The notes under the pieces were generated by a model, which saw nothing but the letters and a program-made list of their open reading frames with translations, did no database searches and had not been told where the DNA came from. Below are positions 21,323-63,950 of a stretch of 64,000 nt of DNA, piece after piece. Both the position numbers and the translations under genes were made by a program. Numbering within the stretch: the stretch's first letter is position 1; each line of letters opens with the position of its first letter. This DNA is from Eledone cirrhosa (lineage: Eukaryota). Where the stretch lies: assembly GCA_964016885.1 (NCBI GenBank), contig OZ024754.1, positions 9,362,001-9,426,000 on the forward strand, read 5' to 3'.

Positions 21323-21906
21323 TCATCATCATCATCATTTCATTTTATGTCCGCTTTTTCCCTGCTTGCAAGGGTGGGACGGGAACTGATTCTGGCTTGA
21401 TTTCTACAGCTGGATGCCCTTCCTAACACCAACCTCATTTACAGTGAGTGATGGGTGCCTTTTTTGCCGTGGCACCTACACGTCCACTTTACAGTGTGGG
21501 CTGGGTGCCTTTTTGCCGTGGCACCTACACGTCCACTTTACAGTGTGGGCTGGGTGCCTTTTTGCCGTGGCACCTACACGTCCACTTTACAGTGTGGGCT
21601 GGGTGCTTTTTTGCTGTGGCACCTCCACGGCCACTTTACAGTGTGGGCTGGGTGCCTTTTTGCCGTGGCACCTACACGTCCACTTTACAGTGTGGGCTGG
21701 GTGCTTTTTTGCTGTGGCACCTCCACGACCACTTTGCAGTGGAATGATAGGGACCCCAGTCCCTATCATCTCATTTCTACAGCTGAGTAAACTGGAGCAA
21801 TGTGAAATAAAGTGTCTTGTTCAAGGAAACAACACATCACCCGGTCTGAGAATTGAACTCACAACCTTTCGATTGCAAGGCTCTAACCACTAAGCCATGT
21901 GCTTCC
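21323..21906 (-). mobile_element. Full-length SINE family A with five extra 49-bp internal units
   Basis: Reverse complement of 21922-22277; GGCACC recurs at 21471, 21520, 21569, 21618, 21667 and 21716. Confidence 0.9.
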
Positions 21907-21921
21907 AATATATGTATATAA

Positions 21922-22277
21922 GGAGGTACATGGCTTAGTGGTTAGAGCATTGGCCTTGCAATCGAAAGTTTGTGAGTTCAATTCTCAGCCCGGGTGATGT
22001 GTTGTTTCCTTGAGCAAGACACTTTATTTCACATTGCTCCAGTTTACTCAGCTGTAGAAATTAGATGATAGGGACTGGGGTCCATATCATTCCACTGCAA
22101 AGTGGTCGTGGAGGTGCCACGGCAAACAAGCACCCAGCACTCACTGTAAATGAGGTTGGTGTTAGGAAGGGCATCCAGCTGTAGAAATCAAGCCAGAATC
22201 AGTTCCCGTCCCACCCTTGCAAGCAGGGAAAAAGCGGACGTAAAACGATGATGATGATGATGATGATGATGATTGAT
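21922..22277 (+). mobile_element. Full-length SINE family A (tRNA head, CORE-like domain, RTE-like tail, (GAT)n)
   Basis: A box TGGCTTAGTGG, B box GTTCAATTC, TTGAGCAAGACACTT, tail CCCGTCCCACCCTTGCAAGCAGGGAAAAAGCGGACGTAAAACGATGATG. Confidence 0.9.
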
Positions 22278-28018: not shown

Positions 28019-28164
28019 TTTGTTAGAAGTGCCTACTGACTGTAGGTTTCGCTTTGTACTTAGGCAAGGTGGGTCTTCTGTATGACTGTGTAGCGCCAAA
28101 TATATATATATATATATGTATACAATATATTAACAAATGGAAACTATATTTATAAAACCATATT

Positions 28165-28230
28165 TATTTCATTATACATATTTCAAGGGCCACCAGAGCA
28201 AACTATGGTGCATTTTCATCAGATGAAATA
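28165..28230 (-). ncRNA. Type I minimal hammerhead ribozyme motif
   Basis: Minus strand: UAUUUCAU-CUGAUGA-AAUGCACCAUAGUUUGCUCUGGUGGCCCUU-GAAA-UAUGUAUA-AUGAAAUA; perfect 8-bp stem I. Confidence 0.75.
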
Positions 28231-28324
28231 TAATATAGGTTAGTTTTATAAATAAATATTGACATACCCTTAAAAAATGCAACCATTCTGGTTGGAATCT
28301 TCTGGATAAAACTAACCTATAATA

Positions 28325-28390
28325 TATTTTATCTGATGAAAGTGCACCATAGTTTGCTCTGGTGGCCCTTGAAATATGTATAATGAAATA
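28325..28390 (+). ncRNA. Type I minimal hammerhead ribozyme motif
   Basis: UAUUUUAU-CUGAUGA(28333-39)-stem II-GAAA(28371-74)-UAUGUAUA-AUGAAAUA; stem I has one G-U pair. Confidence 0.75.
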
Positions 28391-28666
28391 AATATGGTTT
28401 TATAAATATAGTTTCCATTTGTTAATATATTGTATATATATATATATGTATATATATATATAAGCAAAGAGATATTTAATTTGTTGGTTATTCAACAAAT
28501 TTATTTATAACAGATTCAAAGCACTCTACAAGGTTCTTCTGGAGTATAATATCAATCATATTAATAAATGGAAACTATATTTATAAAACCATATTTATTC
28601 TATTATAAGAATGGTTGCATTTTTTAAGGGTATGTCAATATTTATTTATAAAACTAACCTATATTA

Positions 28667-28732
28667 TATTTTATCTGATGAAAGTGCACCATAGTTTGCT
28701 CTGGTGGCCCTTGAAATATGTATAATGAAATA
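28667..28732 (+). ncRNA. Type I minimal hammerhead ribozyme motif
   Basis: Identical to 28325-28390. Confidence 0.75.
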
Positions 28733-28861
28733 AATATGGTTTTATAAATATAGTTTCCATTTGTTAATATATTGTATATTTACTCCAATAATTTGTTGAG
28801 TGCTTTATATCAATTATAAAAATATTTTTAGCTTGTTGTATCCCAACAAATTAAATATAAC

Positions 28862-28894
<33 letters not shown>

Positions 28895-28896
<2 letters not shown>

Positions 28897-29085
28897 GGAA
28901 CAAGTAAGACCCCGACGGCTGAGCTCAAGCCGTTTCGACGGCTAATTCGCTGTCGAATTAGCCGTCGAAACGGCTTGAGCTCAGCCGTCGGGGTCTTACT
29001 TGTTCCTATTACCCACTCTACTACCCTAAGTATTGAGTACTTTGGTGCGTTATGGTCCACCTGGTTCCTTACCACATTTCCTTCG

Positions 29086-29121
<36 letters not shown>

Positions 29122-49335: not shown

Positions 49336-49949
49336 TGTATATATATTTATATATACATACATATATATATATATGTGTGTGTGTCTTGATGTGAGTATTG
49401 TTCAGAAAACAGGAAGGTGTTATAGTTATATATTTTTTTATCAAGTTTTGTTGTTTTTCTTTTGAGTTTCTTTCAATTTTTTCAGAACAGTAATGTTCTA
49501 AAATCTAACATCGACTTTTCTAGGCTTTCATATTCTCATCTTCAGGATGGAGTGATAGTGGTGTGTGTTACAGCTGTTTTTTTAAATTTTTTATGTAGAT
49601 AAGGCACGCAGAAACATTATTACCAAAATGTTTATGTTTCACTGATCCAAGAGCAAGAAACTAGCTGAAGAGGAAGGCCTGAAAAGTGGTGAAACTTTAC
49701 TTTAGGGGCTCGAATCTCACAAATAAGATAACAAAAAACTTCAAAAAATTATGAGATGCTGGGCTGTAAAAGACTTGAAGTGGAATGTCTGAAAAGTGGT
49801 GAAACTTTATTTTAGGGGCTCGAATCTCACAAATAAGATAACAAAAAACTTCAACAAATTATGAGATGCTGGGCTGTAAAAGACTTGTCCAGTCTATGCA
49901 AGTATGGAAAAACCTATAATGATAATGATTTTTTTTTTTTTTTTTTTTT

Positions 49950-50627: not shown

Positions 50628-51246
50628 ACTCAGTAATAGAGAAGACCCGCCTTACCTAAATACAAAGTAAAAACCTACTACAGTCAGTAGGCATCTCTAT
50701 CAAAACACACCCCCGTCCCACCACCTCCACCCCACCCACACCGCCCCTTTCAATGTAAAGTTATGTTGGTCCCACAACATCCAGGCCGAAACAAATGAGA
50801 TCGTGTAGGTGTCACGACAAAAAACACAGTCCACGCTGTAAATGTGGCCGTGTAGGCAACACGGTAAAAACCTCCCAGCCCCACACTGTAAATGTGGTTG
50901 GTGTTAGGAAGGGCATCCAGCTGTAGAAAACCCGCCAGACAGTCCACGCTGTAATGTGGCCGTGTAGGCAACACGGTAAAAACCTCCCAGCCCCACACTG
51001 TAAATGTGGTTGGTGTTAGGAAGGGCATCCAACTGTAGAAAACCCGCCAGACAGTCCTATGCGAGCAAGACAACCACTCTTGCCTCAAGTGGGAAAACCC
51101 CCGTCCAAACCCATGCAAGCGTGGAACACGGAACACGGACGCTAAACCTGATGATGATGATGATGATGATATATATATATAGTGGTAGAACACTGGAAGG
51201 TAATATCCGTAGTAGTAGAGCACTCAGTTCATGGGACGAGTTAGGT

Positions 51247-51378
51247 AGAAGTGGTTACACAACAGTTAGTTCATCATATATCGAGAACAATTGTTTCACC
51301 TTAGCGGATCCTCAGCTGAAGATCCGCTAAAGTGAAGCAATTGTTTTCGGTATGGTGAACTAACTATAACTAACCACT

Positions 51379-51381
<3 letters not shown>
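51247..51381. repeat. About 135-bp imperfect palindrome with back-to-back hammerhead-like cores
   Basis: Centre CAGCTG at 51313-18; the minus arm reads CUGAGGA-UCCGCUAAGGU-GAAA-CAAUUGUU. Confidence 0.7.
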
Positions 51382-52249: not shown

Positions 52250-52782
52250 TACAGGGTGGTCCGAAAGTCTTGTCATCGCCTACCAAAAAGAAAATTATAT
52301 TATTATGATTAGAAAATTATATTATTATTATTATAAGGGCGGTGGATTGGCAGTATCGGTAGAGGGTCGGACGCCATGCTTTCCAGCATAGTTACGTCCC
52401 TTTACGATCTGAGTTCAAATCTCGCCGAGGTTGACTTGCCTTTCATCCTTATGGGGTCAATAAAATAAAGTACCAGTAATGCACTGGGTAATTGCTGGCC
52501 TTGTGCCTAAAGTAGAAATTATTATTATTATCATATATTATAATTAATTGTTTCTACTTTAGGCACAAGGCCAGCAATTATCCAGTACATTACTGGTACT
52601 TTATTTTATCGACCCCGTAAGGATGAAAAGCAAAGTTAACCTCGGCGGGATTTGAACTCAGACTGTAAAGGGACGTAACTATGCTAGAAAGCATGGCGTC
52701 CAACCCTACTATTAAAACAAAAAATAATGAAAGTTAAAACAATGTGTAACAAGGGGTGACAAGACTTTCGGACCACCCTGTA
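52250..52782. mobile_element. Tc1/mariner-type MITE containing two inverted family B SINEs
   Basis: TA-CAGGGTGGTCCGAAAGTCTTGTCA ... TGACAAGACTTTCGGACCACCCTG-TA; SINEs at about 52337-52520 (plus) and 52545-52710 (minus). Confidence 0.88.
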
Positions 52783-60465: not shown

Positions 60466-61653
60466 CCTTATAGAGACACAAATTATGAGAACAATTATAT
60501 ATTTGGTTTCATTTTGTAAAGACAAAAATTAAAACTACAGGCAATGTTAAATCTTTTCACAAAGAAGTTAATATCATGTTTCTTGCCAAATTGACATTAT
60601 GGCGGCCATTATTTGCTTCATTATGCCTTTGTTTGTTTGCACGTATGTTTATATCAACATACATATACATAAATATAGGTAGAGAGATAAAGAAATATAT
60701 ACATATAGATAGGCTAATATACATAATTAGAGGAAGCTAGATAGATAAGCAGATATTAGTTTAGTTTTAGTATGTAATACATGAAATGCTGTATGTTTTA
60801 GAGATATAAAAATGATTTATCCATGAGCGTAACTGCTATAGACGAAAATAGTTGCAATAGTGTTATGTAAATGTACATGTAGTTACATATTAAAATATAC
60901 TGGGGAACAACACAATCTATTCTATAATATTATAAATAAAACTATTTATGGTTCCAAACATTCATTAGTGTTTTGTATGTCTAGTTAACTCATCAGTAGA
61001 GAAGAAATGATAGATGGCATTCATATGACTACTATCTATAGGAGTATTTAATAAAATATTAAGGTGCAGGACTAAGTAGTTAAGGGGTTGGGTTCATTAT
61101 TCTAAGTTCACGAGATCAATTCCCAGAAAAGCCAGCACATTGTTTCCTTGAGCAAGACACTTTATTTCACATTGCTACAGTTCACTCAGCTGGCAAAAAT
61201 GAATTTGTACCTGTAATTCAACTGGCCAGTTTTGTCACACATTGTGTCACACTGATTCATCATCATCATCATCATCATCACTGTTTTACGTCCATTCTTC
61301 CACACTAGCATGGGTTAGACGGGTTGTCCTGTTGTGGACAATGCCAGGTCAGGTGACCATGTCTCGCTCGTACAGAACTGTTTCTGGCAGGTTTTCTATG
61401 GCTGGATGCCCTTCCTAACACCAACCACATTTACAGTGTGGACTGGGAGCCTTTTAACCGTGTCTCCTACACGACCACTTTACAGTGAGGGCTGGGTGCT
61501 TTTTGTCGTGTCTCCCGACCAATCTTGCCTCAAGTAGGACAAAACCGTCCAACCCATGCTAGCAGCATGGATGATGGACGTTAAACAATGATAATGATGT
61601 TGATGATAAGCTAGGATCAATATATGTATATATTATATATATGTATATATATA

Positions 61654-61844
61654 TAACAAAGGAAATGTGGTAAGGAACCAGGTGGACCATAACGCACCAA
61701 AGTACTCAATACTTGGGGTAGTAGAGTGGGTAATAGGAACCAGTAAGACCCCGACAGCTGAGCTCAAGCCGTTTCGACGGCTAATTCAGTCCAGAATTAG
61801 CCGTCGAAACGGCTTGAGCTCAGCTGTCGGGGTCTTACTGGTTC

Positions 61845-61847
<3 letters not shown>
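61654..61847. mobile_element. Second copy of the 28.9-kb GC-rich palindromic element
   Basis: Perfect palindrome at about 61735-61847, plus the same flank as 29007-29090. Confidence 0.8.
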
Positions 61848-61923
<76 letters not shown>

Positions 61924-62253
61924 TTCATAAGGCTTAGTGGTTAGAGAATTTGATTCCCAATCCTGAGGTTGTGAGTTTGATTCCTGGACTGTGTGAGGCA
62001 TTATGTCATTGAGCAAGTCACTTTATTTCACATTGCTCTTTTTGCTAAGAGTTGCAAACAGTAAATATTATCACCAATGGAAAGACCATTGAAAAAATTG
62101 TATTCTTGGGTCAATTTGAAGAGTTCCACTCAGCTCAGTAATGAAATGAGGTCCAAGGTCTTGTTGATCGATTCAATCAATTGATGTAAAGCTAGATATA
62201 TGTATAGGTCTTTAGATATATACACTGATAGACTTTAAGCGAAAGAAGGTACA

Positions 62254-63390: not shown

Positions 63391-63444
<54 letters not shown>

Positions 63445-63589
63445 TTTGAGTATATGTTGGTTGTATACCAACACCTCAGTATGCAGATTGGAGCACTCGA
63501 CGAAGTGCGCAGGTTGGTTTGGTTACTCCGGAGTAATGTAAAATAAAATAAAATAAATAAGTCAAATGTTTAAAATTTAGCTTCGTTTA

Positions 63590-63950
63590 TTACTGCTATA
63601 TATATTTCGGTGACAGCCATCTTTGGCTGTGACCTCTTTAGGCAGTCCGAATTAGTGTGGTAGAGACGAGTACACATGTTGTTGAGGTGTTTAACTTTGT
63701 CAATACTCTGATATGCCCAGTTCCTGGTTGGGTTGTTGTTTCACTGAGGAACTGGAATCATATCTCTTCCAATCATATATGATTCCAGTTCCTCAGTGAA
63801 ACAACAACCCAACAAGGAACTGGGCATATCAGAGTATTGACAAAGTTAAACACCTCAACAACATATGTACTTGTCTATACCACATTAATTCGGACTGCCT
63901 GAAGAGGTCACAGCCAAAGATGGCTGTCACCGAAATATATATAGCAGTAA
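63590..63950. repeat. About 360-bp inverted repeat (arms about 174 bp, loop about 13 nt); PLE-like inverted pseudo-LTR
   Basis: Arms are reverse complements with few mismatches; each outer end carries a hammerhead motif. Confidence 0.9.
63894..63948 (+). ncRNA. Type I minimal hammerhead ribozyme motif
   Basis: ACUGC-CUGAAGA-GGUCACAGCCA(AAGA)UGGCUGUCACC-GAAA-UAUAUAUA-GCAGU: 5-bp stem I, 10-bp stem II, palindromic stem III, AUA cleavage triplet. Confidence 0.8.

Follow-up and report, generated by a model that had tools for sequence, protein, structure and literature searches.

Short palindromes at TA repeats in an Eledone cirrhosa contig resemble Penelope-like insertions and probably received both arms from one donor

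Penelope-like elements (PLEs) leave insertions of a recognisable form: they are truncated at the 5' end, often carry there an inverted and truncated 5' copy, are extended on one side only by a tail of 30-40 bp, and are found in (TA)n targets (PMC8557442). Head-to-head palindromes are described as the most frequent PLE form (PMC3846280), and the formation of the inverted end is counted among the "still undefined features" of the transposition cycle (PMC8557442). In vitro work with a purified PLE protein has shown nicking and extension on both strands of AT-rich DNA, with reverse transcription starting at two sites that bound the tail (PMC11167929). Hammerhead motifs are absent from Naiad and Chlamys, and hence are no universal PLE trait. 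Penelope families are abundant in coleoids (PMC7943196, PMC8967140), 31 recently active Penelope-like families are reported from Octopus vulgaris (PMC13282606), and octopus PLE families with a preference for (TA)n have been listed (PMC8557442). The non-LTR retrozymes, a further group of repeats, are thought to be moved by PLE proteins (bioRxiv 10.64898/2026.07.22.740005). A search of literature titles and abstracts returned no comparison of PLE arms within palindromes with PLE arms between palindromes, which older Penelope structure papers may contain.

In this paper we analyse a stretch of 64,000 nucleotides from E. cirrhosa, referred to here as the window. Tandem repeats take up more than half of this animal-type DNA (34,447 of 64,000 bases are masked), and its repeats appear similar to those of octopus genomes. 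An earlier note on this DNA had pointed to two palindromes, here loci A and B, which lie 33 kb apart and differ from each other by substitutions that recur in mirror image. All positions were confirmed, and the letters are as it gave them: GGAAC[C]AG and CGAC[A]GC are each mirrored in the opposite arm. The two arms of locus A are exact reverse complements of each other (0 of 53 positions differ), as are those of locus B (0 of 53), and the same two of 53 positions differ in all four cross-locus pairs of arms. These are arm positions 32 and 47, both mirrored in the opposite arm, and the change at position 32 is a CpG transition. If each arm had acquired two changes independently, the full mirror would be expected with a chance of 8.1e-5 under uniform rates, or of 2.6e-3 with CpG and transition weighting, and passive descent of both loci from one palindrome with independent mutation is unlikely, as the note had supposed. 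A grouping of left arms with left arms across loci, which the note had named as contrary to its reading, was looked for, and the arms were found to group by locus in three of three copies.

Features of the palindromic copies and look-alike families, in window coordinates
Feature	Position	Strand	Remarks
Locus A tail-less inverted arm	28896..28948	-	
Locus A junction	28949..28954		GCTGTC
Locus A tail-bearing arm	28955..29007	+	
Locus A tail, 80 bp	29008..29087	+	followed by (TA)n, 29088-29119
Copy C tail	29120..29199	-	5 differences from A tail
Copy C tail-bearing arm stub (about 12 nt) and junction	29200..29213	-	
Copy C full tail-less inverted arm	29214..29266	+	6/53 differences from A
Degenerate TA run, left flank of B	about 61620-61654		
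Locus B one-sided tail, 80 bp	61655..61734	-	ends at TA run; compared with A tail, C as outgroup
Locus B tail-bearing arm	61735..61787	- (sense)	private alleles 61741 (arm position 47) and 61756 (arm position 32)
Locus B junction, 6 nt	61788..61793		AGTCCA on +, TGGACT in element sense
Locus B tail-less inverted arm	61794..61846	+	mirrored alleles 61825 (arm position 32) and 61840 (arm position 47)
Hammerhead 3' half in B	61805..61828	+	same motif at 61753-61776, minus strand
(TA)n run, right flank of B	61848..61924		
Family F2	28119..28860		inverted and direct arms, full hammerhead core, tails, TA runs; four pieces X1-X4
Family F4	51182..51381		66-69-bp arms, no loop, 65-bp tail on one side
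Family F3	63440..63950		arms of 174 bp, loop of 13 nt, full core, one-sided tail

A third copy, C (29120-29266), adjoins A, and the three copies, all within the 64-kb window, make up the family sample. Element orientation was read from a hammerhead half-motif, described below, and from the tail. In each copy the order is a TA run, a tail-less inverted arm, a junction, a direct arm, an 80-bp tail and a second TA run. The earlier note had recognised a real palindrome of 113 bp, but the common unit is about 190 bp and consists of the palindrome together with the tail, which had been missed and which lies on one side only. This one-sided 80-bp tail is present in three of three copies, and so are TA runs at both ends, where a target-site duplication is unreadable inside the microsatellite. 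A, B and C thereby show the head-to-head inverted copy at the 5' end, the one-sided tail and the (TA)n target of an insertion. The flanks of A and B have only TA repeats in common, and because nothing else is shared outside the unit the two are separate insertions and not a duplicated segment; segmental duplication was rejected as their origin on the same evidence.

A self-search places A and B in opposite orientation within the window. The loops do differ, as the note had stated, but its comparison of AGTCCA with GCTGTC was not like for like, since the two loci are oppositely oriented; read in the same sense, GCTGTC in A and TGGACT in B are identical at 0 of 6 positions, or at 1 of 6 with one loop inverted. 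Spacer inversion was rejected as the cause of the difference on account of that single match. The first and last bases of the A loop pair, which leaves a strict loop of 4 nt. The inner breakpoint, which the note had found to be the same in both palindromes, is indeed one inner end for A, B and C, common to five of their five long arms.

In copy C the tail-less arm is full, at 53 nt, and the tail-bearing arm has only about 12 nt, so that the comparison of C arms with each other is limited to this 12-nt stub. Both C-private alleles of that stretch also occur in the partner arm, and 1 position differs. The short arm could stem from a later deletion. A and C stand tail to tail across a TA run and form a second palindrome (29003-29204, 101-bp arms), which has 5 unmirrored mismatches in contrast to the mirrored arms within A and B; it is the product of two separate insertions into one microsatellite.

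The tails of A and B differ at 2 of 80 positions, both private to B when C is used as an outgroup, and the same holds for the 2 of 53 arm differences, so that all four are private to B. The density of B-private changes is similar in arm and tail, which fits changes accumulated in a donor lineage. With C as outgroup, the mirrored arm changes of B are C-to-T and T-to-G, and from these types of change it was reasoned that A-to-I editing is to be rejected as their cause.

The arm holds the 3' half of a type I hammerhead, namely C-GAAA, a 6-bp helix III whose loop is self-complementary, and the triplet GTC, and the C-to-T change of B turns one helix III pair into G-U. For this pattern, which was chosen after inspection of the sequence, 7 of 20,000 dinucleotide shuffles of the 133-nt unit of A gave a match, and 69 of 20,000 did so for a looser pattern without the preceding C. 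The self-duplex of helix III is predicted at -30.7 kcal/mol versus -7.1 kcal/mol for the hairpin; a duplex between two molecules is described as a trait of PLE hammerheads that act as dimers (PMC4209133). A, B and C begin downstream of the expected 5' hammerhead half. None of their five long arms contains CTGANGA, the first half of the core, and judged from its sequence no copy would therefore have a working ribozyme, the hammerhead being incomplete. The sole near match to CTGANGA, with one mismatch, overlaps the junction of A and has, by eye, no helix II behind it. Rfam returned no match at gathering score, and it gave no hammerhead either here or at the look-alike families F2 and F3 (see below). 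At Rfam E values up to 10 the list is headed by miRNA hairpin models, all below cut-off, and includes no hammerhead family; a miRNA reading was rejected as reflecting hairpin shape only. Arm and tail together fold no better than shuffled sequence (z 0.36).

The reverse complement of the A loop is predicted to be able to serve as the 5' strand in hammerhead helix II, a pairing that 19 of 4096 6-mers would form as well. Free folding of the helix II strand returns the A-loop hairpin, and the A loop is within one mismatch of a 6-mer present twice in the arm. The A loop thus looks non-random, and could be the parent's helix II strand or the trace of a jump onto a cleaved RNA end. The B loop fits neither account. 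Within the three copies the B junction is matched, at no more than one mismatch, only by a 6-mer of the tail, and such a match would easily arise by chance.

Among 150 of the 182 window ORFs of at least 45 aa there was no Pfam match to RT or GIY-YIG, no tyrosine recombinase match and no gene bearing on the palindromes. The 44-aa open frame of arm and tail had 0 matches among 1.84 billion representatives, and 0 of 58 candidates matched it, which by the method's own caveat is weak evidence. Since they have no ORF, the A, B and C copies are no autonomous PLE. No exact match to a 24-nt arm pattern was obtained from bacterial and archaeal genomes, nor any match to the 192-bp unit from phages or plasmids, and a 19-nt word of the family was not found in a literature text search. 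In the available part of the published PLE consensus set (PMC8557442 supplement), the octopus Naiad and Hydra consensus included, no short words of the family were found; a 10-mer of family F3 occurs there at two unrelated places and was set aside as a chance match. Octopus Naiad was rejected as parent, its ends and the arm having only an 8-nt word in common in the sequence available. The family may already be in the repeat library of PMC13282606. Descent from a PLE is likely on the strength of structure, the searches having found neither a parent nor a copy outside the window.

Three further families in the window, F2, F3 and F4, are distinct from the A/B/C unit in sequence and have the same layout of tail-less arm, junction, arm with tail, and TA. 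Each has a complete hammerhead core, and F2 and F3 are predicted also to form helix I, with 8 and 5 pairs; the fold of F3 has a z of -3.04. F2 contains three copies of a complete minimal hammerhead and four arm pieces. Its two longest arms have one inner end in common, and the tail of its inverted piece at about 28440-28600 is diverged and looks as though it came from a different subfamily; F2 is either two head-to-head pairs, one of them joining the arms of two subfamilies, or a set of nested insertions. In F3 one arm has a broken core base, and the tail is about 150 bp. In F4, which is an old head-to-head pair, the arms meet without a loop at the first base of the hammerhead core and helix I is missing; the spacing of the core resembles, by eye, the Hydra-clade rows of the PMC8557442 supplement. 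Tails in the window families measure 65-150 bp. Matches to the core pattern in the window fall inside F2, F3 or F4 structures in 5 of 8 cases, or in 3 of 6 with the F2 copies merged, the latter an enrichment with P between 2e-4 (whole window) and 2e-3 (unmasked part).

The arms of these look-alikes have decayed without mirroring. Those of F3 differ at 6 of 174 positions, unmirrored despite a 13-nt loop, and those of F4 have 10 mismatches in 66 paired columns plus 3 gap columns (69 in total), likewise unmirrored; the arms of the older palindromes of this layout in the window are not homogenised. This bears on an account in which a palindrome is inserted and its arms are afterwards equalised, by replication template switching or by arm-to-arm conversion. 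Template switching is reported to equalise the arms of inverted repeats and to invert the spacer (PMC8604942), and the short 6-nt spacer of A and B favours hairpins. The two tail changes of B also predict about 2.65 arm changes if these arose in place, about half of which would be expected to become fixed under conversion; the number observed is 2. Yet F3, with its 13-nt loop, and F4, with no loop, have many unmirrored differences, C has 1 unmirrored difference in 12, inversion of the spacer fails to convert one loop into the other (1 of 6), and the fixed tail boundary and the association with hammerheads are left without account. We regard later homogenisation as improbable. Arm-to-arm conversion, which the earlier note had offered as one of two possibilities, is compatible with A and B taken alone, but F3, F4 and C speak against its being general.

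The same features weigh on two further explanations. A mobile element of non-PLE type with a built-in palindrome, such as a MITE, a non-autonomous Helitron or a DIRS-type element with terminal inverted repeats, would share with the copies their TA flanks, short length, lack of an ORF and ends that are alike in all copies. A DNA transposon, however, copies its loop faithfully, which counts against such an element here. A DIRS-type element should have an internal complementary region and a tyrosine recombinase ORF between its inverted repeats, but only 6 nt separate the arms and no recombinase match was found; inverted terminal repeats as such are described for DIRS elements (PMC8969392). MITEs and other TIR transposons have inverted repeats at both termini, whereas here the inverted repeat fails to bracket the unit, 80 bp of which extend beyond it on one side. 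Further evidence against an origin of this non-PLE kind, which we consider very improbable, comes from the hammerhead half and from the three hammerhead-bearing families of the same layout. An artefact of assembly or polishing, in which fold-back chimeric reads or mis-mapping equalised the arms, would gain from the fact that palindromes are hard to sequence. It is extremely improbable, in that the same inner and outer ends recur at three loci, each of which has its own alleles, loop and flanks, and the longer arms of F3 were not equalised.

Other repeats were noted in the window besides these families. A palindrome with 40-bp arms and a 6-nt loop lies at 39196-39281, inside a long TA array. 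Inverted pairs of other repeats, 90-92% identical, are found at 52363-52707, where they stand tail to tail across a short AT-rich spacer, and at 21684-22150; both pairs look like SINE copies. Dispersed copies at 37813-38194 and 41149-41549, with one stretch inverted (94% over 302 bp), each have a single C2H2 zinc-finger match below the Pfam cut-off and are possibly the end of a LINE ORF. On the minus strand at 43009-43452, a 148-aa frame that lies in a tandem repeat of 123 bp scores above the Pfam cut-off for UTRA (E 1e-6), which is probably a repeat artefact. A two-copy tandem of 110 bp at 49665-49887, with a hammerhead-like core at the start of the first copy only, is possibly a decayed retrozyme-like repeat.

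The reading that we prefer, with a probability of roughly 0.6, is that A, B and C are separate insertions into (TA)n, likely of a PLE 3' end, whose arms likely came from one donor RNA. Taken singly, a PLE-type origin is highly probable, a template shared by both arms at insertion is very probable too, and, given both of these, synthesis of two cDNAs is the likelier route than fold-back. The anatomy of the copies, the identity of arms within a locus, the unrelated flanks and loops and the unmirrored decay of the look-alikes are the observations on which this reading builds, and its enzymatic steps are modelled on those of a different PLE in vitro. A PLE protein acting in trans would nick both strands of a TA run. 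One nick would prime cDNA at the outer start site, giving tail and arm, the opposite nick would prime at the inner start site and yield a tail-less arm, and both cDNAs would run to the same 5' stop inside hammerhead helix II. Head-to-head joining of their 3' ends would then bring in a few filler or overhang bases; these would form the loop and would be new at each insertion, and the arms would later drift apart like LTR pairs. The mirrored changes are likely present because both arms were copied from the same donor RNA.

Two cDNAs are favoured because the outer ends are fixed and offset by the precise length of the tail, the outcome expected of two RT start sites, because the tail-less arm of C is longer than its tail-bearing arm, and because the loops of A and B are unrelated while the copies are otherwise 97% identical, as though the junction were written at each event. 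Under the same PLE origin, a tail-bearing cDNA might instead snap back through a hairpin near helix II, copy itself and be cut at the boundary of arm and tail. Fold-back would directly explain the identical arms and the fixed inner end; self-priming was proposed for PLE palindromes in 2013 (PMC3846280), the tail has been ascribed to endonuclease resolution (PMC8557442), and the 13-nt junction of F3 has, by eye, a short self-complementary stretch that could prime. The loop should then be parent sequence, however, and those of A and B agree at none of six positions; nor can a copied arm outgrow its template, as the 53-nt tail-less arm of C would have outgrown the stub of about 12 nt, barring a later deletion. 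The tail, moreover, is accounted for in vitro by two RT start sites (PMC11167929). On this evidence fold-back is unlikely. The earlier note had proposed templating of one arm from the other at insertion, by fold-back synthesis at a fixed site; a shared template at insertion is the best-supported option, whereas fixed-site fold-back fits the arms of C and the loops less well.

Random 5' truncation does not predict a single inner end in five of five long arms. Any of three things would explain such an end: a short donor whose RNA has a fixed 5' end, an RT stop in helix II, or a palindromic donor clipped at its loop. The last of these leads to a more speculative reading, which we hold to be doubtful, of a palindromic retroelement that regenerates itself: a non-coding unit, about 135 nt long, which, having lost one half of its hammerhead, rebuilds a perfect palindrome at each jump. 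A palindromic copy would be transcribed as a hairpin and clipped at the loop, giving an RNA with one fixed 5' end; a Penelope-type enzyme would make two copies of this RNA, starting from opposite strands of the target, and would write a new loop on every occasion, and the near-palindromic helix III could hold two clipped RNAs together. If true, such a cycle would account for the fixed inner end and the unrelated loops together, and the genomic copies would be a natural record of how the inverted ends of PLEs are formed.

Returning to separate PLE-type insertions from one donor, A, B and C most likely represent a new family with the known PLE insertion layout. That layout is known for PLEs and mirrored changes are expected if both arms come from one donor, and the mirror itself would be no surprise to a PLE specialist. 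The copies are short, young and compact, and three of them lie with three look-alike families in 64 kb; since arm lengths, loops and the placement of tails are predicted to differ between the rival mechanisms, the formation of PLE inverted ends becomes directly testable. If the arms are identical at birth, the divergence between them would date each insertion, as it does for LTR pairs.

A comparable process is the 5' inversion of L1 by twin priming, where likewise two cDNAs are primed on opposite strands of the target and become joined head to head. The inverted piece of L1 comes from another part of the RNA, further upstream, whereas the two pieces of A, B and C copy the same part and so give a palindrome. 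In literature titles and abstracts, twin priming applied to PLEs was not found; older Penelope structure papers may apply it. Non-LTR retrozymes are, like the copies described here, short, non-coding and associated with hammerheads, but they are described as head-to-tail tandems with complete hammerheads (bioRxiv 10.64898/2026.07.22.740005), whereas A, B and C each consist of one head-to-head pair and have only half of the motif.

Among known systems, close counterparts are the endonuclease-bearing PLEs with inverted pseudo-LTRs (Penelope/Poseidon, Neptune, Hydra and Naiad; PMC8557442, PMC3846280). The copies agree with these, as they are described, in the head-to-head inverted copy at the 5' end, the one-sided extension, the (TA)n target and the strong 5' truncation, and with the Hydra clade in the position of the hammerhead motif, here a half, about 100 nt from the 3' end. 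They are unlike endonuclease-bearing PLEs in that they have no ORF, only the 3' half of the hammerhead and one inner end in the long arms. Their tail is 80 bp long versus 30-40 bp in the published PLEs (PMC8557442), and tails across the window families are two to four times the published length; helix III has 6 bp with a 7-nt loop, as against 3-4 bp and a loop of 1-3 nt in the Hydra rows available.

A further close counterpart is PAc, the Poseidon element of Anolis carolinensis (PMC11167929). PAc is a lizard element whose hammerhead overlaps the start of the ORF, whereas the open frame of A, B and C matches no protein, and the available text of its in vitro account describes no inverted junction. 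The likeness lies in the AT-rich target, of which both strands are nicked and extended, and the two RT start sites of PAc predict arms with and without a tail on opposite strands.
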